From: Candidatus Methylomirabilales bacterium
Lineage (GTDB): Bacteria > Methylomirabilota > Methylomirabilia > Methylomirabilales > CSP1-5
Reading direction: 5' to 3'
Length of the DNA: 56,762 bases
NCBI GenBank assembly: GCA_041599135.1
Contig: JBFHXD010000002.1
Span: 1 to 56,762, forward strand
The position numbers and the translations under genes are program-made. The notes under the pieces were generated by a model. That model worked only from the letters and a program-made list of their open reading frames with translations, was not told the origin of the DNA and searched no databases. Below, piece by piece: positions 2,345 through 52,834 of this stretch. The stretch's first letter is position 1. Each line of letters opens with the position of its first letter.

Positions 2345-2490
2345 GTTCTCCTCCTTGACCCACTGAGGTGTCATGTCTTTTTCGCCAGCCAAAAGAAAAA
2401 AACGGGGCGGAGCAATCTCCGCCTCCGCTCTCTCTATTGCCCCTTGTGACTGCACGTGGCTTGGTTCCACAGCGGTCAGATTGGCCTTCC

Positions 2491-2973
2491 CTATTTGATC
2501 GCCCAAACCTCCTGCTCATCCAGCTGCCTGAGCAGGCTGCGGAACGCCCGGACCATCAGCACGGGCCGCGTCGAGGCCTTGAGGACCTTCTCGGCCACGC
2601 TGCCCAGATCGAACTTATCGAAGCCGGTGGTCCCGTGGCTCATCATCGCGATGAGGTCCGCGTTTTCCTGCTCAGCCACCATGAGGATCTCCACCGCCGG
2701 CTCGCCCACCAGCACCTCGAGTTTTGTCGTAATACCAGTGTCCTGCAGGCGCTTGGCCACCCCCTCGAGGTACTTGGCTGCCTGTGCCCGGTCAGCGTCC
2801 ACCCAGTTACGGGCTTCGGTGGGCGCCTCGGCAGCAATCGAGGCATGTCTGGGGTCAGTCGTACGCAGCAGGAGCACCTCGGCGCCACTGACCTTGGCGA
2901 TCGGCTCTACGTGCGGTAGAATCCGCTCGGCCAACTCCGACCCATCTAGGGGTACCAGAATCCGCTTATACAT
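2491..2973 (-). CDS. Universal stress protein (UspA family)
   Basis: MYKRILVPLDGSELAE start typical of Usp proteins, plus the C-terminal ATP-binding-type motif MMSHGTTGFDKFDLGSVAEKV. Start moved to the internal ATG. Confidence 0.85.
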   Translation of the reverse strand: MYKRILVPLDGSELAERILPHVEPIAKVSGAEVLLLRTTDPRHASIAAEAPTEARNWVDADRAQAAKYLEGVAKRLQDTGITTKLEVLVGEPAVEILMVAEQENADLIAMMSHGTTGFDKFDLGSVAEKVLKASTRPVLMVRAFRSLLRQLDEQEVWAIK

Positions 2974-3245
2974 CTTACTCCCTCCTTTCGCGGGTCCATC
3001 CCTCCAACCGGACCCTTTCACCACACCTCACTTCGCCCACTGCCACCTTCATCCAAGAGCAAGCTGTATTCCGAGTCGCAAAGAGCATTAACCTAGCATT
3101 TTTAAAGGCTTCGTCCAACAGGCCGAGCGGGATGTGGGGTACCCGTGTCCAGACCGAGATTCGGCTTGTCCCGCGAAGCCTTTATTTTCATTTGCCAACC
3201 ATTGGGGCTCGCTTTCCTCAGTGGGACAGCCTCGCCCCATGCCTT

Positions 3246-39182: not shown

Positions 39183-40760
39183 TCATGTCAAAGAACCACG
39201 GCAGGAGTTGCAGTACCGCGTAATGAAAGAGAGAGTGCCGGCATCCTCAGGTCCCAGCATGCCTGCGATCCGCTTGAGCATGGCGCCCGGAGCCACCGGA
39301 GCTCCGCAAGACTCACAGCGCGCCTCAGTATCCCGGTGTAGGGTGCGTCTCCCCCGGGCGATTTGCGCGAGATCGGTCACCTTCTCGACGTGCACCACGC
39401 GCTCGGGGCAGACTGGGACGCACGACTCACAGCCAATGCATATTCCTGGCTCATAGGTCAGGGCAACGTCCTCGTGACCACGGTCCATTTGCAAGGCGTC
39501 GGTGGGACAAGCTCGGACGCAGGCTTCGCAGGCGGTGCATCCCTCCTTGACGGCGACCATGCCTACCGGAGAGTACGGATGAGTCAACGCAAAGTCGAGG
39601 GAGGGGGCGAACTGCTCCGCTAGCCCGAGAAGCGCCTGTGCGGTTGCCCGCGGGGCAAACAGCGCCACATCCCGGGTGCGGCCTGCTCTCGACTCCTCTC
39701 TCGGCTCGGGCAGGGAACCAAGCGCACGCGCCAATGCCTGTTCATCGCCCGGATCGAGAAGTCTCACCGCGTCAGGCGAGGCACCTAGCCCGCTCAAGAA
39801 CTCTCGGCAGTAAGCGACCCTTCCCTTGGTGACCTCCCTTTGTCCGAATCGGCAGTCATCTCGAAGGCAGGGGAGTACCCCCGTGGCCACAGCGCCCAGA
39901 TTGAGGCACTGAAGAAGCCAGGTCGGCGTCACCACCCCGAGACAAGGGACCTCGACCGGGAGCCAGCTCGCAGGGTACGAGAACCCCTGATCGGCGAGCC
40001 CCTGAAGGGTCGGGGCGCTCCGCGCGCAGACAAACATGATGGCCCGGGGACGAATAGGCAGTGATGCGCCGTTGAGGAGCGTGGCAATCTGCGCGTTGAT
40101 CTGTTGGGGCGAGACCCCCGGGAGATCGATGGCTTGCTGAGGGCAAGCGGACACGCATGCCCCGCATCCAGTGCATCGTGTCTTGTCGAGGGCCATAAAG
40201 TCTTCGGACGGTTCCAGGGCCTGCCAGGGGCAGGTCGTCGCACAGACCCGACACCCCTCGTTGAATGCGCAGTCTCCTTTTCGAATAAACGCGACCGGTT
40301 CGTATCGTACCGGCGGGAGAGTGAAGAGAGCACGGCGGCTGAGGGTCTGGTCCCATGAGAGCACGGGCTTGATGTTGTCGGGCCGGCTTTCGGGAGAGGC
40401 CCCCACGCTCGCCAAAGCGGCTTCCAACAGGATCTTTGCCTTGGCCGTGGCCTGGGACCTTTCGTGCACCTGAGCGCAGTAGGCACCCAGATTCACGACC
40501 TCGACGCCAAAGGGGTCGAGCCCCACCTTTCGCGCTTGCGCCTCGAACTCAGGGACAGAATAGGCATGAGAGCAAAGCCCGAGGACCAACCCGGTGCCGT
40601 CGCTCAGTGCCTTATCCAGCGACCATCGCGACGTGCAACAGGGCCCCTGCTCGATTCGCATGCCGAGCTCCGGCACGCGACCCCGAAACCATTCCCGTAT
40701 CGCCTCGAGGTCCAGGCCGAATCCTCGGGTTTCGAGCTCCTGACACAGGAAGACCGCCAT
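39183..40760 (-). CDS. Cytoplasmic poly-ferredoxin with MvhD/FlpD-like domain(s) and a C-terminal Cys4 ribbon
   Basis: Two 2x[4Fe-4S] ferredoxin units (CRVCATTCP/CTGCGACVSACP and CTACEACVRACP/CIGCESCVPVCP). FlpD/MvhD-like segment IMFVCARS...VEVPCLGVVTPTWLLQCLNLGAVATGVLPCLRDDCRFG. C-terminal CESCG...CNSC. No signal peptide. Confidence 0.7.
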   Translation of the reverse strand: MAVFLCQELETRGFGLDLEAIREWFRGRVPELGMRIEQGPCCTSRWSLDKALSDGTGLVLGLCSHAYSVPEFEAQARKVGLDPFGVEVVNLGAYCAQVHERSQATAKAKILLEAALASVGASPESRPDNIKPVLSWDQTLSRRALFTLPPVRYEPVAFIRKGDCAFNEGCRVCATTCPWQALEPSEDFMALDKTRCTGCGACVSACPQQAIDLPGVSPQQINAQIATLLNGASLPIRPRAIMFVCARSAPTLQGLADQGFSYPASWLPVEVPCLGVVTPTWLLQCLNLGAVATGVLPCLRDDCRFGQREVTKGRVAYCREFLSGLGASPDAVRLLDPGDEQALARALGSLPEPREESRAGRTRDVALFAPRATAQALLGLAEQFAPSLDFALTHPYSPVGMVAVKEGCTACEACVRACPTDALQMDRGHEDVALTYEPGICIGCESCVPVCPERVVHVEKVTDLAQIARGRRTLHRDTEARCESCGAPVAPGAMLKRIAGMLGPEDAGTLSFITRYCNSCRGSLT

Positions 40761-40793: not shown

Positions 40794-41516
40794 TTATACT
40801 GAACGGCTGGCTTCTTGATGATACTGCATCAGGAGGGCATCTATCAACGCCTGGTCATGCCCGATGAAGTCGTGGGCCGCTCGGGTGACCACGGTGTAAA
40901 AGCCATCCCCGGCGTGGCGGGCAACCTGCTCGGCAAGGACCGGAAACCAGAGGTAAAGGTGCCGACCAAGAAATCCCGCCTCCGCCTCAAGTCGCTTGAC
41001 GCCGTCCTTGAGCGACTGCTTGGTCCAGGCCTCTGCTTCCTTTCCGCAGAGGAAGCTCATGAACTCAAGCTCGACGGACGCATGGTCCGGCGGTTCCTTG
41101 AAGGACGTCGCCACCGCCAGGCCAGCCGCGCCGTATACTCCGTCAAGTGCCGCCATGGTCAACGCCGGGTTGTCGGGCGTCAGAAAGCCAGACTCGTACA
41201 GGGGCACCTTTTGGTGTACGAGAAACAGATCGAGATAGGCCTGCTCGAGGTCCGCAGTTCCTGACTCCTCCCGCTGTACGAGAAGAGCCAGGAACCTGGT
41301 CCACTGGGAAAAGAAGGCAAACTCCACGAGCGACTGACTTTGCTGCTCTAACTCGCGGGCAACAGCGACGAGGCTCGTTAGGCGCTCCTCAGCCGGGTAG
41401 AGCAGCGTCGTGCCGAAGAGCCGGTACGCGGCCTGACGGAAGCGTGCCAGATCTGCGAGCCGCACGGGGGCAGCGCGAGATTTCCGCCTTGTAGCCTTAG
41501 GGCTTCTGCGGGCCAT
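40794..41516 (-). CDS. TorD/DmsD/NarJ-family molybdoenzyme chaperone
   Basis: From MARRSPKATRR... . RQAAYRLFGTTLLYP, LDLFLV, YESGF and ELEFMSFL are typical of the 'nitrate reductase delta'/TorD family. The track ORF N-terminus (to 41825) is an over-extension overlapping the dihaem gene. A GTG at 41465 is an alternative start. Confidence 0.7.
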   Translation of the reverse strand: MARRSPKATRRKSRAAPVRLADLARFRQAAYRLFGTTLLYPAEERLTSLVAVARELEQQSQSLVEFAFFSQWTRFLALLVQREESGTADLEQAYLDLFLVHQKVPLYESGFLTPDNPALTMAALDGVYGAAGLAVATSFKEPPDHASVELEFMSFLCGKEAEAWTKQSLKDGVKRLEAEAGFLGRHLYLWFPVLAEQVARHAGDGFYTVVTRAAHDFIGHDQALIDALLMQYHQEASRSV

Positions 41517-41883
41517 AGAAGTGCCGACCCGGCCCGGCCGTATGGCATCCCAGGCAGACCCGGCGGTCAGTGAAGCCGGGGGAGCTTGCCGAAACGTCCA
41601 CCGCAGGTGGCTCGGTAAAGGGCAAAACGCTCGGGGGCAGCTGCCCGCCATGACAGGTGGCACATTCGAGCCCGAGGACCCCGGCATGGATTCTATGGAA
41701 GCGCTGATCCGGCGCCATCCCATAGGCCTTGTTCGCCTTGCCGCCGACGTCGATCTTGCCCTGTTGGATTTTTTTGGCCACCTCGGGCAGTGATACGGAC
41801 TCGTCTTCTGATGCGGTGGCCGCAAATCCGCCGATTAACCCGACCCCAAGCAACACCACCAAGATCGCAATCACCCTGTTCAT
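41497..41883 (-). CDS. Membrane-anchored/secreted dihaem cytochrome c
   Basis: N-terminal hydrophobic helix. Two CxxCH motifs (CATCH, CLGCH). 128 aa. ATGA overlap with the Fe-S subunit gene. Confidence 0.75.
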   Translation of the reverse strand: MNRVIAILVVLLGVGLIGGFAATASEDESVSLPEVAKKIQQGKIDVGGKANKAYGMAPDQRFHRIHAGVLGLECATCHGGQLPPSVLPFTEPPAVDVSASSPGFTDRRVCLGCHTAGPGRHFYGPQKP

Positions 41884-42623
41884 GCTGACCCCCTCCCTGG
41901 CTGTTCGATCTGGCGTGCTCCGTCCCCGGGTCGTGCCTTACCGACGTAATGCACCCGTGGCTGCGTGCCAAAGTCCTCCCGCAGACGGAACGAACGCTTG
42001 TCGGCCACGCGCTTCGAAACCGCGCTTTTTGGGTCATCGAGGTCGCCGAACTCCAGCGCAAAGACCGGGCAGACGTTTACGCACGCGGGCTTGAGCCCTT
42101 TCCCTTCCACCCGCTGGACGCAGAAGGTACACTTGCCCATGATCCCCTGGGGATGGCCAGCACCGGCGATTCTCCGCTTTTCCTTGCCATATTTGCGGAA
42201 CAGGTCCGGATTCTCGTATGGAGGGGAGTCGCCTTTCGTAATCTGAATCAGATCCTTGTCGCCCCAATTCAGGTACTGGTTCTTCTTCCCAGGTTTCCAG
42301 TTGAAGTAATTCACCCCGTACGGACAGGCAATGGCACAATAGCGGCAGCCGATGCACGTGTCAACATTGGTCGCCACCATACCATCCGCCCGCTTGTACC
42401 GTGCCCCGGTCGGACACACCTTGACGCACGGGGCATTGTCACAGTGCTGACAGGGCCGGGGCAGGAACGATATCTTCGTGTTGGGGTACTCCCCCTCCTC
42501 GAACCGAAAGACGTACATCCAGAAGGTACCCTCAGGGGTGTTGTTCTCGACCTTGCACGCCTCCATGCAGGCGCGGCACCCCGTGCACCGATCCACATCT
42601 ACTACCATTCCGTATCTCGGCAT
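41880..42623 (-). CDS. Four-cluster [4Fe-4S] electron-transfer subunit (PsrB/DmsB/NrfC type)
   Basis: CTGCRACMEAC, CQHCDNAPCVKVCP, CIGCRYCAIACP, CTFC...CVNVCP. 247 aa. Confidence 0.9.
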   Translation of the reverse strand: MPRYGMVVDVDRCTGCRACMEACKVENNTPEGTFWMYVFRFEEGEYPNTKISFLPRPCQHCDNAPCVKVCPTGARYKRADGMVATNVDTCIGCRYCAIACPYGVNYFNWKPGKKNQYLNWGDKDLIQITKGDSPPYENPDLFRKYGKEKRRIAGAGHPQGIMGKCTFCVQRVEGKGLKPACVNVCPVFALEFGDLDDPKSAVSKRVADKRSFRLREDFGTQPRVHYVGKARPGDGARQIEQPGRGSA

Positions 42624-42635
42624 CGCTCACCTCCG

Positions 42636-45188
42636 CTAGGCCTTCCAGACTCGAACTTTGACATGGAAGGATTGATCCGCACTGTTGCTCACATAGCCTT
42701 CGCCAGTAAAGAAGAGGATGTTGGAGTTCGGCCCCTTGGTAAAGGGTTCGCTCCCCCTGTTATAGTGGTGGGGCATCCCTACCACATCCGGCCTGATTCC
42801 CTCGGACAGCCGGGCCTGTGTTTTTACTTTTCTCTTCTCTCCGGTCACCGCGTTGTGGGACTCCACCCAGACCATATCGCCGTCCTTGATCCCCTTCGCT
42901 TTGGCCGTCTTGGGGTTGATCTCGAGCCGCTGCTCGGGTGCCAGCTCGGCCAGCAACGGAATCTGGGACGCGCGGGCCTGCTTGAACTCGATGAGCTTGA
43001 AGCTGATCAGGGTGAGGTCATACGTGCTCGGCGAACCTTCCATCGTGGGCGTCCGATAGGCCGGAAGCGCCGTATAGTCCTGCCAGTAAATCTTGTCGAC
43101 TCCTTTCTCCCTCATCTCGCCCTGGTAGCGCAGCAGTGATTCCCCGTAGAGACGATGGCGGTTGCCGCCAAAGGGGGGATCCTGGGCGTACCCATAGTAC
43201 TTCTTCGCCGGCACGGGTCCCTTGACCTTGACCCCGTGCTTCTCGAAGTACGCGATTCCTTCCTTGATTCCCTCTCCTTTTGCCCATGTGTCGAAGATTT
43301 CTCGGACGGTGGGCTTCTTGTTCACGTCTAGCGTGTGCGGGGCCTTCAGCTTGAGCGCCTTGTTGACCTGGGCCAGGTACCCCTTGTCGCCGTACAAGAT
43401 GCCGGCCTTTTCACAGAGATCGAGGTAGATATCGATGTCCCCCCGGCTCTGGTACAGCGGGTTCATCACAGGGATCCGCATCGCAACCGCATCGGTGTAC
43501 TGGTCCGTGGCACTCAAGGGGCCCTCGTACTTCTCCATGGTGGCGGCGGGAAGGACGACATCCGCGAAGTAATCCGCCGTCTCGGACAGCCACGGGTCGA
43601 TGACCGCTATGAACTTCAGCTTCTTGTACGCCTCGATGAAATCCGGTTGCGAGCAGAACGAGCCCAGAGGGTTCGCCATGTGGACGATCATCACCTCTGG
43701 CGTGTAGTCGACCCCGTATTTCTTGGGATTCTGGATCACCTTGGTCACGATCCCGGAGAGGTTACTGTTGATGGGGTAGAACTTCGAGTCTTTGAGATAG
43801 ACGTTATAGGGAGGATCCTTGATCTTGATACTATCGAGCTTCTCCCAGTTCTTGTGGATCTTGTGCGTGTAGTCGATCCGGAGCCCTCCTACCGCCTCGA
43901 CCGCACCGAGGAGCATGGAGACGAGCATCATGGCCCGCAGCGTCTGGAAGCCGAGTTCCGTCTGCGACATGTGGTAGGCCATGATGCTGACCGGGCGGTA
44001 CGGAAGCCGCACGCCGTCCAGCACGATGGTGCTTCCGATCCTAGCGTTGTCACCCAGGTCCCAAGCTACTTGGCGGATGCTGTCCGCCGGGATATCGCAG
44101 ATCTTCGCAGCATGCTCGGGGGTATACTCATCCACGTGCTCCTTAAAGACCTGGAAGGCCGTCTTGACCTTCGCCCGCCCGACGGTGAACTCTCCCTCAA
44201 GCGCCGGCTTGACCCCCTTGGCATCGTGGGGTTTTGCGGACCTGGATGCCGAGTCCCAGACCTGCTCCTTCCCAGCCACGCGGAGGAAGGAACCGTCCTT
44301 CGTCACCAGGAAAGGCGCATTGGTGTGCTTCGTCAGGTACTCCCGGTCGATCGTGCCCCGTCGGATCAACTCGCGGGAGAGTGCCAGGGCCAGGGCCAGG
44401 TCGGTCTGCGGCTTGATGGGGAGCCACTCATCCGTGAAAGGGCCCGCGCCCCTGAGCCGGGGATCGATCACGACGGTCTTCATCCCCCGCTCTTTGGCTT
44501 CGACGAGCTGCTGGGGCCAGGTGAGCCAACACGTCTTGTTGCCACCGGCGTTCGTGATATTCCAGCCCCAGGATAGCAGATAGTTGCAGTGCCGGAAGTC
44601 CGGGTGGAGCACCCCGTGCAAGCCCGTGGTGTACTCACAAGCGCGATACCCGGCGTCAGAGCAATAGGCGCCGTGGTGGAGCTTGGTCGCGCCCGAAGCC
44701 TTGACGAAGGCATCATCGTAGAATTTCTTCGCCTTGCTCCGCCCCTTTTGCCAGAGGAGCAGCCGCTTGTCTCGCTTACGCACGTCATTGATTTTATCCG
44801 CCACCAGTGTCAGGGCCTCGTCCCACGAGACCTGACGCCATTTGCCGGGGACCCCTTTTTCGTTGGTCCGGACCAGGGGGGCCTTTACCCGGTTGGGGTC
44901 ATACATTGCCTGAATCTGGGCAACCCCCTTGGGACACAGCGTTCCCTTGTTCCGCGGATGGTCAGGGTGTCCTTCGAGCTTCACCACCCGCCCGTTGATG
45001 CGGCGGGCAAGGATGCCGCAGTCCTGTTTGCCAATCCAGCAGGTCGTGGGCACCATCTCTTCCGCAGCCGCCGGTGAGCCGGCCATGACCTCCAGCGTCT
45101 CCGGTCCACCGGAGAGGAAGCGGCTGAGGACAAGACCTCCCCCTGCTGCCGCAGAGCCTTTGAGGAAAGATCTTCGTGTAATTTTCAT
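42636..45188 (-). CDS. Tat-exported bis-MGD molybdopterin oxidoreductase catalytic subunit (Psr/Phs/Arr-like clade, substrate unknown)
   Basis: Twin-arginine signal MKITRRSFLKGSAAAGGG. N-terminal Fe-S motif C-x2-G-x3-C-x27-C (TTCWIGKQDCG...LCPKG). 850 aa. RBS AAGGAGG. Confidence 0.88.
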   Translation of the reverse strand: MKITRRSFLKGSAAAGGGLVLSRFLSGGPETLEVMAGSPAAAEEMVPTTCWIGKQDCGILARRINGRVVKLEGHPDHPRNKGTLCPKGVAQIQAMYDPNRVKAPLVRTNEKGVPGKWRQVSWDEALTLVADKINDVRKRDKRLLLWQKGRSKAKKFYDDAFVKASGATKLHHGAYCSDAGYRACEYTTGLHGVLHPDFRHCNYLLSWGWNITNAGGNKTCWLTWPQQLVEAKERGMKTVVIDPRLRGAGPFTDEWLPIKPQTDLALALALSRELIRRGTIDREYLTKHTNAPFLVTKDGSFLRVAGKEQVWDSASRSAKPHDAKGVKPALEGEFTVGRAKVKTAFQVFKEHVDEYTPEHAAKICDIPADSIRQVAWDLGDNARIGSTIVLDGVRLPYRPVSIMAYHMSQTELGFQTLRAMMLVSMLLGAVEAVGGLRIDYTHKIHKNWEKLDSIKIKDPPYNVYLKDSKFYPINSNLSGIVTKVIQNPKKYGVDYTPEVMIVHMANPLGSFCSQPDFIEAYKKLKFIAVIDPWLSETADYFADVVLPAATMEKYEGPLSATDQYTDAVAMRIPVMNPLYQSRGDIDIYLDLCEKAGILYGDKGYLAQVNKALKLKAPHTLDVNKKPTVREIFDTWAKGEGIKEGIAYFEKHGVKVKGPVPAKKYYGYAQDPPFGGNRHRLYGESLLRYQGEMREKGVDKIYWQDYTALPAYRTPTMEGSPSTYDLTLISFKLIEFKQARASQIPLLAELAPEQRLEINPKTAKAKGIKDGDMVWVESHNAVTGEKRKVKTQARLSEGIRPDVVGMPHHYNRGSEPFTKGPNSNILFFTGEGYVSNSADQSFHVKVRVWKA

Positions 45189-47057: not shown

Positions 47058-48434
47058 TTAAAACTTCACGGTGATCCTGGCCTGGATGTTATCACTGGTC
47101 TGACGTTCCTCGGCACCGACCAACTTGTCGATCTCCTGCCGGTGCCGGTACCGGAGGTCGAAGACGGTGTTCTTGAAGATGCCCACCTTATACCGCATCT
47201 CGATGCTCCAGGCGTTGTTCGGATAGTCCGGCGAGATCAGATAGCCGGCCTCGGTCCAGTTGAACTGAAACCCGAGGCTCCCGGGCCCCACATTTTTGAG
47301 ATCGAGTCCCGCGACGACGGCGAACCGACCCGCCGACTCCGTGCTGTTTGAGACCTCCAGGACGTTTTCCTGAGGCGTCTGGGTCATCACGCCGAACTCC
47401 CCGAACGGGTGGAGGATGATGGGCTCCAGCCACGAGAGCGGGAAATCCGCCGCGCCTTTGAGCGTGAAGGCGACCATATTCTCCTTCTGCTCGCTGGCGA
47501 GGCCTGCGGGCCGGAGCGCTTGCGGGATGATCGTGACATCCGCCAAGAGCTGGGTGAAGGGCTTCGAGCGAGGCGCTTCCAGGGCCACATAATAGGTGAA
47601 GCGGGAAGCCCCCTCTTCATAGTCGACCGGTCCTCGAGCCCCAACGCCGTTGGTCGGACCGTCCTTGGGGTTTTCCTGGCCGATCAGATGGAGCGTGAAG
47701 GCAGAGGGCCTTCCGATGCTCACGTGGAAGCCGTCGGTCCAAGTGATGTCGAGGCCAGAGGAATCGTGACGGGAGAGGCTGTCCTCCACTACCGAATCCA
47801 CCTCGAACGCGGTTTGGAGCCTTCCGCCCTCGATCGTGAGGAGCTCGTGGGGCTTCAGCGTGAGGAACAGCTCATCGAAGGTCACATCGCCGGGTTCGAG
47901 GCCCCCGTCGAACTTGAACTGGAAATCAAAGTTCTCAATTTCAGTATTGATCCCGAGGGCTAACCGGGCGGTCAGACCGAGCCAGGGAAAGAAAGAGACC
48001 TCAGCCCCTCCGCGGAGCCGGGCCGCCGGGATGACCTTGACAAAGGCGTCGCCGTCTCGCTTCCCCGTTCTGTTGTAAGGTACCGCGGCCCTCAGGTCCC
48101 CGATGAAGGTCACATGCCGCGCCACCCACGACCGCTGCTTTTCCGCGCCGGCCGTCTCTGGCTCACGAGATGGCTCTGCGGGGGCGGAGGCGCTTTCCTG
48201 CTTGGAAGGTTGGTGTTGCTGAACGGTAGGGTCTTGTAGCTTCGCCACCGAATCCGCGCCAACCGCGCGTGTCGGTGTGAGGATCAGCATCGACAGAGCA
48301 AGCACCGCAATCAGTATCCTCTTCAGGGAAAAGAGGACATTCGGAGTTACCCCCGGTTTCGTGGACACACCCAGAGGATAGGGGGTTGATTCAAACGTTG
48401 CGGGACTGAGGGAGTTAGTCACTGGTGCAGCCAC
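47058..48434 (-). CDS. Outer-membrane beta-barrel (porin-like) protein
   Basis: Internal signal-like segment LKRILIAVLALSMLILTPTRAVGA. Long alternating amphipathic beta pattern. C-terminal ...IQARITVKF with terminal Phe. The true start is probably downstream of 48434. Confidence 0.6.
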   Translation of the reverse strand: MAAPVTNSLSPATFESTPYPLGVSTKPGVTPNVLFSLKRILIAVLALSMLILTPTRAVGADSVAKLQDPTVQQHQPSKQESASAPAEPSREPETAGAEKQRSWVARHVTFIGDLRAAVPYNRTGKRDGDAFVKVIPAARLRGGAEVSFFPWLGLTARLALGINTEIENFDFQFKFDGGLEPGDVTFDELFLTLKPHELLTIEGGRLQTAFEVDSVVEDSLSRHDSSGLDITWTDGFHVSIGRPSAFTLHLIGQENPKDGPTNGVGARGPVDYEEGASRFTYYVALEAPRSKPFTQLLADVTIIPQALRPAGLASEQKENMVAFTLKGAADFPLSWLEPIILHPFGEFGVMTQTPQENVLEVSNSTESAGRFAVVAGLDLKNVGPGSLGFQFNWTEAGYLISPDYPNNAWSIEMRYKVGIFKNTVFDLRYRHRQEIDKLVGAEERQTSDNIQARITVKF

Positions 48435-50328: not shown

Positions 50329-50494
50329 AACCTCTCGCGGCGTTCCGGACATCGTGCACTCACATACGTGTCATTATCTTGGCATCTATGTACTAGAGAA
50401 CCGGTCCCATGTCTATGACCAAAATCACAAAAAAATAAATTTTATGATAGGCCCCCGCAAGGGACGCCGAAATTCCGCGGGTCCTTCGAGAATA

Positions 50495-51325
50495 CTACTG
50501 TTGGAAGTCCGAGAGCTTGGCCAGCCGGTTAAACGAGAGGACGCCCTCGTAGCGCTTTCCCTTGATGAACCACGTGGGGTAGGCCTTGATCGCGAGTTGG
50601 TTGCACAGCCCCGGGTTTGACCCGGGAACCCTCTGGTCACACTCGACGTACGGAAGCAGATCAGCCGCAGGCCCGAACTGGGCCTTTTGCTCGCCACACG
50701 CGGGTCACCAGTATGCCCCGTACATCATGGCGCCGCTCTCGGCGAGGTGGCGAGCGAGCGCCTGCTGTGCGGCGGCGGTCTCCGGCGAGCTTGCCGCGAA
50801 GAAGCCGGCGCCGATGAGGACCGTCGCCACCGCGGTGATGGTTCCGAGGGTCACAACGCGGGACTTGCGCGCGGGGAACCGTCGGCCCGTCCCCCTTGGG
50901 CGGTACAGAAGGAGCACGCCAAACAGCGCGGCCGCGATCACCGCCGAAAGGATGCAATACCCGCAGATCGCGCGGATCTCAAACAGCTCGAGGTAGGTGA
51001 GATACGCCGAGAAGGAAACGCCTGCCACGGCGAGGAGAAAGGTGGAGAGCCATCGCCGCGCGTCTAGCCCGATGAGCGCGATCGCACCGATGGCTGCGTA
51101 CAGCCCGGCGCCCCACAGCGCCGTCGGCAAGCCAAAAAAGACGGCGTATCGGCTTGCCTGGACGATGTCACAGCCACTGCCGGCCGTGCAGAAGAGGGGG
51201 CTGTCACCGCCGAGCTTCGTCAATGCGAGATAGCCCGCGACGACGAATCCCGCGGCTGCAAGCCCGGCCACCGGCCAGTTGCGCCGTGGCGTCTCGAATT
51301 GTTTGTGTCGTGAGAATCGTGCCAT
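50495..51325 (-). CDS. VKOR (DsbB-analogue) fused to a thioredoxin-like domain, with in-frame TGA (50705-50707) at the first Cys of the CxxC motif; candidate selenoprotein
   Basis: VKOR motifs CTAGSGCDIVQAS and CGYC in a 4-5 TM core. Then ...LAESGAMMYGAYW-TGA-PACGEQKAQFGPAADLLPYVECDQRVPGSNPGLCNQLAIKAYPTWFIKGKRYEGV...*. This reproduces the YGAYWCPHC...YVEC...YPTW pattern of VKOR-Trx fusions. The 69 sense codons after the TGA contain no ATG, GTG or TTG. Confidence 0.65.
50604..50708. repeat. Copy B of the ~105-bp direct repeat (inside the functional thioredoxin domain, includes the TGA)
   Basis: See copy A. The two copies bracket the HAO-like gene and its AT-rich upstream region. Confidence 0.85.
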
Positions 51326-51337
51326 TTTTTCCTTGTA

Positions 51338-52834
51338 TCATTGCCCGCGCGCTTGGGCAAGTGCCTCTTCCGCCTTGCGACGCGCGGTCTCGTATAGCGC
51401 GTCCGCGGCATCCGGATTGTGGATACCTCGCCCGCCCTTCACGAGGGCGAGCGCTCGCTGCGCGTCTTTGAGCAGCACGTCTGCTCCGCTGGTCTGGCGT
51501 CCAGCGCGCCGCGCCTTGCCGAGTGCGGCCTCCGCCCGTTTGATCGCCGTGGCGGCTTGTGCCATCTGCTCGTCGAATCCGGTTGTCCACGCTTCCACGA
51601 ACGCCATGTATGCCTCGTCGTGGCACACGAGGCACTGCTGGCCAGCAGCCTTGCGCGAATGCTCTTTGGTGAGGTCGTGGCATCCTGTGCAACCCACGGC
51701 AGCAACCATGACGTTCGGCTTGATTTTCGCGAGGTCTGTCTTCACCTCGCCGCGGTAGAACGCGGCTTGCCTGCGGTGACACGATTCGCACCGCTCGTTC
51801 TGTGGGCTGTGGTGACAGGACGTGCACGTCGCAGGAGTCGCGGTGACTGCCTTGTGCACCTCGGCCGAATGGCATCCCGTGCACACGGCACCGAACTCCG
51901 TAATGTGCCGGGCGTGGGGGACGTTCTGCTTTGCGAAGACCACCGTCTCGGGAACCTTGACCCCTGCCTGTTCGTGGCACAGCACGCCACAGTACCCTCC
52001 GCGGACCAGGGTGTCATTGGTCTTGACCGGCGCCTTGCCAAGGAGCTTGAGCGCCTCGTCGAGCCAGCCGTTCGCGAGTTTGAGCAGATCCGCCGCATAG
52101 AAGACATTGTGGACGCCTTTCCCGAGAACAACGAACTGGATGTTGAACTCGGCCTCGTCCACGAGCTGCCAGGCCCGGGCCTGCTTCGGATTCGTTGGAT
52201 CGGTCCCGCTCAGCGCCCCGCGTGCCTGTTTGAGCTTCGGCGCGACGACCTCTCGCATCTTGTCCAGCGTGTCCGCCCACTTTTGGAGCATCCCGCGATA
52301 TTTCTCGCCGTGGCACTCAACACATGCCTGCTCGCTCGGTCTGAACGTCTGCCCCACGATCCCGGCCTCGCGCTCGGTCTCTTTGGGCACGATGTGGCAG
52401 GCGATGCATGCCACCCGAACCTGAAACATGTGGCTCGGGATCATCGGTGTCCCGCGCCCACCCATGCCGAGATACATTCGAAGCACCCCTTGGTGCTTGT
52501 CAACGTGACAGTTCGCGCACTCCAGCTCACCGGCCCGGTGGGGTTTCGCCGGCGGTTTTACTTTGGCGCGGTCGGCAGGCGCGATGGGCCGCGGACCAGG
52601 ATGCTGTGCAACCATACTGGGCAGTCCGATGACCGCGGGCTGAGGACTGATCAAGGTCGATTTCGGATTTCGGATTTCGGATTTCGGATTTTTCCCTGCA
52701 GTGAACGGCGAACTGTGAGCGACGAGGGACACCGCAGTGACTGTCGAGTCGGACCCTGGTTTCTCCGCGGAAACGGCTGGAAGGGCTACGCCGAGCAGCA
52801 GCCCGAGGGCGGCGATGCGGATCCACACGGTCAT
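51338..52834 (-). CDS. Periplasmic multihaem cytochrome c (8 CxxCH plus 1 CxxxCH)
   Basis: Signal peptide MTVWIRIAALGLLLGVALPAVSA. CANCH, CIACH, CVECH, CGVLCH, CTGCH, CTSCH, CESCH, CTGCH, CLVCH. ATGA overlap with the upstream gene. The track ORF N-terminus is over-extended. Confidence 0.85.
   Translation of the reverse strand: MTVWIRIAALGLLLGVALPAVSAEKPGSDSTVTAVSLVAHSSPFTAGKNPKSEIRNPKSTLISPQPAVIGLPSMVAQHPGPRPIAPADRAKVKPPAKPHRAGELECANCHVDKHQGVLRMYLGMGGRGTPMIPSHMFQVRVACIACHIVPKETEREAGIVGQTFRPSEQACVECHGEKYRGMLQKWADTLDKMREVVAPKLKQARGALSGTDPTNPKQARAWQLVDEAEFNIQFVVLGKGVHNVFYAADLLKLANGWLDEALKLLGKAPVKTNDTLVRGGYCGVLCHEQAGVKVPETVVFAKQNVPHARHITEFGAVCTGCHSAEVHKAVTATPATCTSCHHSPQNERCESCHRRQAAFYRGEVKTDLAKIKPNVMVAAVGCTGCHDLTKEHSRKAAGQQCLVCHDEAYMAFVEAWTTGFDEQMAQAATAIKRAEAALGKARRAGRQTSGADVLLKDAQRALALVKGGRGIHNPDAADALYETARRKAEEALAQARGQ
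52659..52693. repeat. Heptanucleotide tandem repeat inside the multihaem cytochrome CDS
   Basis: GATTTCG x4 perfect plus one imperfect unit (GATTTTT). Encodes ...GKNPKSEIRNPKST... just after the signal peptide. Confidence 0.9.

Follow-up and report, generated by a model that had tools for sequence, protein, structure and literature searches.

Within a 56,762-nt stretch of DNA from Candidatus Methylomirabilales bacterium (GenBank assembly GCA_041599135.1, contig JBFHXD010000002.1, positions 1 to 56,762; this whole stretch is called the window below), a gene for a VKOR-thioredoxin fusion protein carries an in-frame TGA at the position of a catalytic cysteine. It had been proposed from the sequence of the window (the original prediction) that this TGA encodes selenocysteine (Sec), which would make the product a selenoprotein of the UxxC type, a simple nonsense mutation of a cysteine codon being named as the alternative.

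Gene structure

The complete gene lies at 50495..51325 on the minus strand, as do all of its parts described here. Translation gives a start ATG at 51325-51323, 206 VKOR codons, the TGA at 50707-50705, 69 sense codons and a TAG at 50497-50495, that is, 276 sense codons including Sec207 and then the TAG. The protein is ...LAESGAMMYGAYW-TGA-PACGEQKAQFGPAADLLPYVECDQRVPGSNPGLCNQLAIKAYPTWFIKGKRYEGVLSFNRLAKLSDFQQ-TAG. Residues 1-206 (50708..51325) comprise the VKOR core and a fifth transmembrane helix (TM5) and match Pfam PF07884 with E=9e-26. This part contains four cysteines, C46 and C52 in the VKOR loop and C121 and C124 in a membrane CXXC motif, all of which are invariant in the alignments. The UGA (50705..50707) is codon 207 and takes the first position of the redox motif, W-U-P-A-C in the window and W-C-P-H-C in homologues. 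Both translation and alignment confirm that the TGA stands at the first Cys of the CxxC motif in a VKOR-thioredoxin fusion, as had been claimed. The 69 codons after the UGA (50498..50704) encode a thioredoxin-like domain, the frame of which is kept in every orthologue. This segment contains PACGEQK...YVEC...YPTW and has the resolving Cys210, the YVEC...C pair and the cis-Pro region YPTW. ATG, GTG and TTG are absent from all 69 codons, in agreement with the original prediction. Because no start codon is present downstream of the TGA, an independently made thioredoxin domain with a redox motif is excluded.

When the full-length protein was searched against Pfam, the VKOR domain was the sole match, and NCBIfam gave nothing for the thioredoxin part and only sub-threshold matches to VKOR models. 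With U written as C, residues 19-273 were aligned to the VKOR-thioredoxin protein of Synechococcus (4NV2/3KP9; E=3e-41), and the C-terminal part alone matches the isolated thioredoxin domain 3KP8 (E=2e-22). Sec207 is aligned to Cys209 of the Synechococcus protein (YGAYW-C-PHC) and S58 to the conserved Ser of 4NV2. By homology, the full-length protein would consist of a VKOR domain, a fifth transmembrane helix and a periplasmic thioredoxin-like domain. The sequence hallmarks of a VKOR-thioredoxin fusion were found, namely the loop Cys pair, the conserved Ser, the CXXC motif in TM4, TM5 and a C-terminal thioredoxin domain, the CXXC motif of the latter having Sec in place of its first Cys (UPAC).

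Conservation of the TGA and pairing with cysteine codons

The protein matches of the read-through sequence have a bimodal distribution. Those most similar to it (63-93% identity) have 205-211 residues and without exception end in ...YGAYW, and full-length proteins (264-295 residues) were recovered only at ~50-56% identity and have Cys at the position of residue 207. Database entries for the TGA form are annotated as 'VKOR family protein' of ~206 amino acids. When the DNA of three of these truncated entries was inspected, the TGA was followed by a conserved in-frame thioredoxin domain. The closest named relative is a metagenome-assembled genome (MAG) of Candidatus Methylomirabilis sp., with 84% identity.

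Searching metagenomes yielded 80 loci (47-85% identity), and the codon for residue 207 is TGA in 78 of them and TGT or TGC in two. Neither TAA nor TAG was ever found at this codon, in the metagenome loci or in 74 distinct DNA segments of the Sec form. In the metagenome TGA loci, PAC follows directly after the TGA (PVC in one locus), and the thioredoxin frame continues for 69-80 codons wherever the contig is long enough. A scan of species-representative genomes added a further 80 loci with organism names, ~20 of which are of the TGA form. Hosts of the TGA form are Candidatus Methylomirabilis, Methylomirabilales, NC10 CSP1-5 and many MAGs of Rokubacteria, Rokuibacteriota and Methylomirabilota; two bins with the TGA form bear other taxon labels. 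The TGC/TGT form was found in other Methylomirabilota, Dehalococcoidia, Armatimonadota, Gammaproteobacteria and cyanobacteria. Related loci are numbered with the prefix L below, and TGA is also present at the same codon in L001-L008.

Altogether we obtained 83 distinct Sec-form proteins, all with a conserved downstream frame, so that no TGA orthologue was seen to end at this position; every one continues through the thioredoxin domain. At the DNA level we compared 74 distinct Sec-form segments with 48 distinct Cys-form segments, and the aligned codon is TGA in the former and TGC or TGT in the latter. Sec/Cys pairs at one alignment column, for which the original prediction had suggested looking, are thus present. 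Downstream of the TGA, the diversity at codon positions 1, 2 and 3 is 0.18, 0.11 and 0.52, respectively, a pattern of the coding type. Chance was excluded through this comparison of orthologues and not through a folding score of the single sequence: the TGA, the frame and the hairpin (see below) are shared by 83 distinct orthologues.

In a neighbour-joining tree the 83 Sec-form proteins form one clade nested among the Cys forms of Methylomirabilota, with six Cys forms inside this clade. This topology fits one old change from Cys to Sec that was followed by few reversions. The orthologues L012 (TGT), L065 and L121 (both TGC) and L104 (TGT) have a Cys codon, are placed within the Sec clade or next to it and retain the hairpin; L012 is a close relative with 82% identity. 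Their hairpins look like fossil recoding elements left after a recent reversion from Sec to Cys. The two forms also differ in the middle of the redox motif, with Ala in 73 of 74 Sec forms (U-P-A-C) versus His in 42 of 48 Cys forms (C-P-H-C). The revertants L012 and L104 retain P-A (codons P208-A209, window 50696-50701). Judging from this co-variation, a selenolate nucleophile may make the DsbA-type histidine unnecessary.

A hairpin downstream of the UGA

The predicted selenocysteine insertion sequence (SECIS) lies within the coding sequence at 50663..50691, in codons E212-A221. Its core, GGCCC-AGUUC-GGGCC (50669-50685), starts 20 nt after the A of the UGA. This hairpin had been pointed out before at the same distance and is the conserved element of the family. 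In the window it is formed by an A-U pair and a GGCCC/GGGCC upper stem, an AGUUC apical loop, a 3-nt internal loop and a 3-bp lower stem; the fold has -13.9 kcal/mol, a 6-bp stem and a spacing of 25 nt from the UGA. The family hairpin is GGCCCG-GUU-CGGGCC, in which the GUU loop is closed by a G-C pair and the stem has 6-7 bp. According to the published bacterial SECIS (bSECIS) model, the loop has 3-9 nt with a G in its first two positions, usually followed by G or U, the stem has 4-16 bp, the minimum free energy is at most -7.5 kcal/mol and the distance from the UGA is 16-37 nt (PMC13188914). The hairpins of the window and of the family agree with this model in all four criteria. Across the family the loop has 3-5 nt with G first or second and then U, the stem 5-7 bp and the spacing 25-26 nt.

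To see the constraint at the nucleotide level, the codons that form the hairpin were compared between the Sec-form and Cys-form segments. Codon +8 after the UGA is GCC in 73 of the 74 Sec forms, versus GCG, GCC, GAG and others in the Cys forms. The next codon is CGG in 71 and CAG in three Sec forms (CTC, CTG and others in Cys forms), codon +10 is TTC in 74/74 (TTC or TTT in Cys forms), and codon +11 is GGG in 74/74 (GGC, GGG or GGT in Cys forms). The third positions of adjacent Ala, Pro and Gly codons of the Sec forms are free to vary. The mean pairwise difference at third positions of the Sec forms rises from 0.09 within the hairpin codons to 0.36 on their upstream and 0.52 on their downstream side. 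The constraint extends to the peptide, which is K-A-R/Q-F-G-P in Sec forms versus K-A-L-F-G-D in Cys forms. From the Sec set RNAalifold derived a consensus hairpin (-9.66), and from the Cys set it obtained no structure; the mean minimum free energy of the hairpin is -11.9 kcal/mol for the Sec set versus -4.3 kcal/mol for the Cys set. The six stem pairs are standard in 74/74 segments except for the closing pair (G-C in 71, A-C in three), and one stem position switches between G-C and G-U among the Sec forms. The hairpin is thus nearly invariant across the 74 Sec-form segments, also at synonymous sites, and absent from the set of 48 Cys-form segments; it is under nucleotide-level selection in the TGA forms only. 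We take it for a SECIS element because synonymous sites are frozen specifically in these forms.

A second hairpin, CCCGGG-UCAAA-CCCGGG (50610..50626), is present as had been described. It is a perfect 6-bp palindrome in the codons P-G-S-N-P-G, within a region of variable length that codes for P-G...P-G, and its distance from the UGA, ~80 nt, exceeds the range allowed for a SECIS. The element is weakly conserved in the closest relatives and absent elsewhere. We therefore rejected it as part of the recoding signal, also because of its distance from the UGA; it is probably incidental.

Decoding of the UGA

Taken together, the conserved TGA, frame and hairpin and the Sec/Cys pairs support the proposal of a UxxC selenoprotein. 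We consider it very likely that the in-frame UGA is read as Sec, so that one gene encodes a VKOR-thioredoxin selenoprotein with a Sec-Pro-Ala-Cys motif. Judged from the orthologues, the Sec form is almost certainly a widespread selenium version of the bacterial VKOR-thioredoxin enzyme that is listed in databases as a truncated protein.

A disabling mutation, a pseudogene or a sequencing error at a TGC/TGT Cys codon would need one base change only, and a close relative with TGT exists (L012, 82% identical). However, independent samples and assemblies yielded 83 distinct orthologues that share the TGA, keep the downstream frame intact and conserve the hairpin, and a disabling mutation would not persist throughout a phylum. 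The comparative data refute this reading, including the nonsense mutation that the original prediction had kept as its alternative, and we give it practically no chance. The same is true of a genome-wide reassignment of UGA to a sense codon for Trp or Gly, as in genetic codes 4 and 25, in favour of which nothing specific was seen. TGA is the commonest ordinary stop in the window, ending 17 of 40 large ORFs (open reading frames), among them the gene directly upstream, 12 nt before the VKOR-thioredoxin gene, and it is the true terminal stop of the VKOR-thioredoxin gene itself in 50 of 99 orthologues. Stop usage thus refutes reassignment. Since UGA is a normal stop in the window, decoding at residue 207 must be site-specific.

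The UGA might also mostly terminate translation. The functional product would then be a stand-alone VKOR of 206 residues that works with a DsbA-like partner, and the full-length protein would be minor or selenium-dependent. Some truncated product is likely, as bacterial Sec insertion competes with RF2, and it would retain all four VKOR cysteines; stand-alone five-helix VKORs without a thioredoxin domain exist, for instance in actinobacteria (PMC4555120). The downstream thioredoxin domain is, however, under purifying selection in 83 distinct sequences, which means that the full-length product must matter. As the main account of the gene we find termination improbable, and it would supplement Sec insertion and not exclude it. 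Recoding could also proceed through the hairpin and SelB with Cys inserted by a tRNA(Sec)-like tRNA (tRNA-ReC/SelC*), giving an ordinary CPAC enzyme. Such tRNAs have been reported to decode SECIS-dependent UGA and to be present in 13-17% of surveyed genomes (PMC13582414), and the evidence from TGA, hairpin and frame does not discriminate between insertion of Cys and Sec. The mechanism is rare, though, Methylomirabilota have been reported to possess very large predicted selenoproteomes, and the change from C-P-H-C to U-P-A-C suggests that the chemistry at residue 207 differs from that of Cys. Neither tRNA-Sec nor tRNA-ReC was found in the window or in the related loci scanned. Overall, we regard insertion of Cys as very improbable.

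Several points weigh against the assignment of Sec. The window and 1.7 Mb of related loci, which are a small sample of each genome, were searched for selA, selB, selD and tRNA-Sec, and none of these turned up. Specifically, the window contains no tRNA gene, a tRNA scan of 169 sequences revealed no tRNA-Sec, and tblastn of E. coli SelA, SelB and SelD (approximate queries) against the 1.7 Mb gave no match. As regards the hairpin, its stem is invariant and offers no compensatory covariation, with only the one G-C/G-U change and the A-U closing pair varying. The AGUUC loop of the window is of the rarer type (3/74), an A-C mismatch replacing the G-C closing pair. The 91-nt region after the UGA, taken alone, folds no better than shuffled sequence (z=0.16), although single-sequence folding is uninformative in a GC-rich coding region, and Rfam over 50480-50760 gave neither a SECIS nor another credible match. 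Finally, selenium in the product is predicted from sequence, the enzymatic role from homology, and the link to cytochromes (see below) is one of synteny that holds for about half of the loci only. One hit of the tRNA scan, a 92-nt 'tRNA-Ala(cgc)' called by ARAGORN at L109 1790-1881, was dropped since it had no Rfam support; it is probably a false positive.

Proposed function and comparison with known systems

In line with established Sec biology, we infer that a ribosome reaching UGA207 would be served by the hairpin 20 nt downstream, which would recruit SelB with Sec-tRNA(Sec). After insertion of Sec, translation would proceed through the thioredoxin domain, the hairpin being read as the codons K-A-Q/R-F-G-P. 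By homology to the Synechococcus protein, the enzyme would be a quinone-linked, disulfide-forming enzyme of the periplasm. Its oxidised Sec207-Cys210 selenenylsulfide would take two electrons from cysteine pairs of exported proteins, which would yield client disulfides. The selenolate would then attack the Cys46-Cys52 disulfide of the VKOR loop to form a Sec207-Cys46 intermediate, and electrons would move on to the membrane pair Cys121-Cys124 and finally to quinone. In general selenium chemistry, Sec surpasses Cys as a nucleophile and also as a leaving group. Both exchange steps would therefore be expected to be faster with Sec at this single position, where it would act in turn as nucleophile, leaving group and electrophile. 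Speculatively, the preferred clients could be the periplasmic redox proteins of the adjoining cytochrome/Rieske/cytochrome b cluster.

The protein resembles Synechococcus VKOR-thioredoxin (3KP9, 4NV2, 4NV5, 4NV6) in its four-helix VKOR core, TM5 and periplasmic thioredoxin-like domain, as well as in the loop Cys pair, the membrane CXXC motif and the YGAYW-x-P-x-C, YVEC and YPTW motifs. In the Synechococcus enzyme, Cys209 forms a mixed disulfide with the VKOR loop, and the proposed path leads from the thioredoxin CXXC to the loop Cys pair, the membrane CXXC and quinone (PMC4555152). The window protein, in contrast, has Sec for Cys209 as the exposed first residue of the redox motif, U-P-A-C and not C-P-H-C, and an internal candidate SECIS. 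The E. coli DsbB-DsbA system likewise relies on a thioredoxin-fold oxidase, which has a reactive N-terminal residue in its CxxC motif and is returned to the oxidised state by a membrane protein that has four helices and two Cys pairs and hands electrons to quinone (PMC4555120). DsbB is, however, a non-homologous analogue of VKOR, the system consists of two separate proteins, and no Sec form of it is listed.

Most prokaryotic selenoproteins have a thioredoxin fold with UxxC or CxxU, Cys homologues and a SECIS within the ORF. Among them, the catalogued UxxC periplasmic thiol-disulfide selenoproteins (DsbA-like form 1, DsbG-like; PMC13188914) are closest in kind, and the thiol:disulfide interchange protein and the thiol-disulfide isomerase-like selenoproteins belong to the same catalogued class (Table 1, PMC13188914). 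Here, too, Sec replaces the first Cys of CxxC in a thioredoxin fold, Cys homologues exist, the SECIS lies in the ORF directly downstream, and the proteins are known from sequence alone. Unlike the window protein, they are soluble or have a single anchor and match PF01323, PF13098, NF041057 or cd02966. The thioredoxin domain of the window protein gave no match to the models that define the DsbA-like, DsbG-like and TlpA-like groups (Pfam and NCBIfam searched), and it forms one polypeptide with its own quinone-linked reoxidase. The hairpin shares with the SECIS elements of E. coli fdhF and fdnG and with the bSECIS consensus an in-ORF stem-loop, a small loop with G and then U, and a spacing within 16-37 nt. 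Its sequence is unrelated to those of fdhF and fdnG, and the family hairpin is shorter, very GC-rich and mostly has a 3-nt GUU loop.

The original prediction knew of no described VKOR-fused selenoprotein, and our searches likewise found none. VKOR is missing from a 2026 inventory that covers 119 families and subfamilies of prokaryotic selenoproteins and is not mentioned in the deep-Sep paper, and none of the selenoprotein models in NCBIfam (June 2026) matches. The full-text literature on VKOR together with selenoprotein, selenocysteine or SECIS contained only unrelated papers, mostly on ferroptosis, though automated predictions may already list the family. The Sec form of VKOR-thioredoxin is probably an undescribed member of the UxxC thioredoxin-fold selenoproteins. 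If so, disulfide generation of the VKOR/DsbB type would join the reactions that use selenium, Sec then being the residue through which electrons travel between the clients and a membrane enzyme linked to quinone. The natural Sec/Cys pair among very close relatives (L012, with TGT) offers a test of what Sec contributes to oxidative folding. An annotation error would also be corrected, as dozens of 206-aa 'VKOR family protein' entries of Methylomirabilota and Rokubacteria miss their catalytic partner domain. In addition, the hairpin is a clean SECIS example, with frozen synonymous sites, a putative fossil in revertants and a dictated peptide K-A-R-F-G-P, and it could be used as a search model for other selenoproteins in the selenium-rich Methylomirabilota.

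Further candidate selenoprotein genes in related loci

The indirect evidence that the lineage uses Sec is good. According to a 2026 review, 63 selenoprotein genes are predicted in one Methylomirabilota MAG, and group 4 hydrogenases of the Sec type have been reported from this phylum. Moreover, genes that match curated selenoprotein families and have an in-frame TGA lie next to VKOR-thioredoxin in our own set. At 12 loci of the Rokubacteria type (L034, L036, L040, L042, L049, L055, L058, L066, L077, L088, L102 and L141), the divergent gene upstream of the TGA-form VKOR matches NF040546, the CUAEP/CCAEP-tail radical SAM (S-adenosylmethionine) (seleno)protein, with 698 bits (NCBIfam cut-off 500 bits). 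For instance, this gene lies at 291-1739 on the minus strand of L066 and ends in ...TEPWFC-TGA-AEPT[RK]GQL.... The TGA is present at the CU site wherever the C-terminus is, and the gene has its own GGGCC-AGUU-GGCCC hairpin. Two selenoprotein genes would thus appear to stand side by side in the Rokubacteria clade with the NF040546 neighbour. In L044 and L098, the gene directly upstream of the Sec-form VKOR-thioredoxin gene matches NF040886, the ExtKL multihaem cytochrome (seleno)protein, with 317 bits (cut-off 250 bits). These ExtKL-type genes (L044 1796-2971 with the TGA at 2663; L098 1019-2134 with the TGA at 1829) encode five haems and have an in-frame TGA in HR[IV]PDG-U-LWTS. Together with VKOR-thioredoxin they may form a two-selenoprotein operon.

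Scanning all loci for a SECIS together with a redox motif gave a very noisy result, and three recurrent candidates were left after the NCBIfam check. Motifs 'GYMNCU' (L071/L075) and 'CDRCHKU' (L046 and others) were discarded because we read them as ordinary stops. In the window, there were no further candidates for TGA read-through, the scan giving only gene junctions and off-frame ORFs. Separately, six gammaproteobacterial Cys-type VKOR loci (L140, L142, L143, L148, L150 and L156) contain a peroxiredoxin-like gene with FPKAFTGG-TGA-TAEC, for example at 2467-3138 on the minus strand of L143. This corresponds to the known T..U type of peroxiredoxin selenoprotein, and every NCBIfam score of these genes is below the family cut-offs.

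Genomic context

Both in the window and at roughly half of the Sec-form loci, a multihaem-cytochrome operon ends with the VKOR-thioredoxin(Sec) gene, and Rieske and cytochrome b genes adjoin this operon. On the minus strand of the window the VKOR-thioredoxin(Sec) gene is preceded by genes for a Rieske protein, cytochrome b, two small c-type cytochromes, a NapC/NirT-type cytochrome and an octahaem cytochrome; the assignment of the Rieske protein relies on its position and on Rieske gene calls in L001/L004. Direct reading of the operon junction (51330..51340, minus strand) shows that the octahaem cytochrome gene stops at TGA 51340-51338, that the VKOR ATG follows 12 nt beyond and that an AAGGA ribosome-binding site lies 4 nt ahead of this ATG. 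Gene order upstream of VKOR recurs in L001, L004 and L007. After VKOR-thioredoxin(Sec) follow an HAO-like octahaem cytochrome, a protein without assigned function and another octahaem cytochrome, and last in order is a molybdopterin oxidoreductase exported by the twin-arginine translocation (TAT) pathway with an Fe-S subunit and a NarJ-like chaperone. We counted 37 CXXCH motifs in the adjacent minus-strand ORFs, close to the 'about 40' haem-binding motifs stated before.

Four or more CXXCH motifs lie within 2 kb upstream of the gene at 25 of 53 distinct Sec-form loci versus 1 of 41 distinct Cys-form loci, so that a multihaem operon context sets the Sec form apart from Cys-form VKOR-thioredoxin. 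The haem-rich setting stressed in the original prediction therefore holds for the window and about half of the Sec-form loci and not for the remainder. The cytochrome association is real but confined to one part of the Sec clade, and a functional link to cytochrome maturation is speculative. A further-reaching proposal would make the UGA a selenium-sensing switch between two products and the enzyme a kinetically superior thiol oxidase dedicated to the maturation of the co-transcribed multihaem cytochromes, as part of a 'selenoprotein operon' of Methylomirabilota for extracytoplasmic electron transfer. With selenium the fused VKOR-thioredoxin(Sec) would be made, and without selenium a stand-alone VKOR that works with another partner; the co-transcribed cytochromes would in some relatives include the selenoprotein ExtKL, encoded directly upstream. 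We see this proposal as a long shot and think it unlikely to hold.

Some neighbouring genes of the window, all on the minus strand, deserve a brief description. The TAT-signal molybdopterin oxidoreductase (850 aa), its Fe-S subunit and the NarJ-like chaperone lie at 40794-45188, adjoin the multihaem cluster and have no Sec codon. At 39183-40760, a 525-aa protein with 31 Cys is encoded that has several 4Fe-4S domains and the MvhD/FlpD domain PF02662. This family includes archaeal selenoproteins, and in the window gene there is no in-frame TGA with a convincing downstream frame. An ORF of 458 aa at 47058-48434, with a coding-like GC content at third codon positions (GC3) of 0.76, no Pfam match and no cysteine, lies between two octahaem cytochrome genes.

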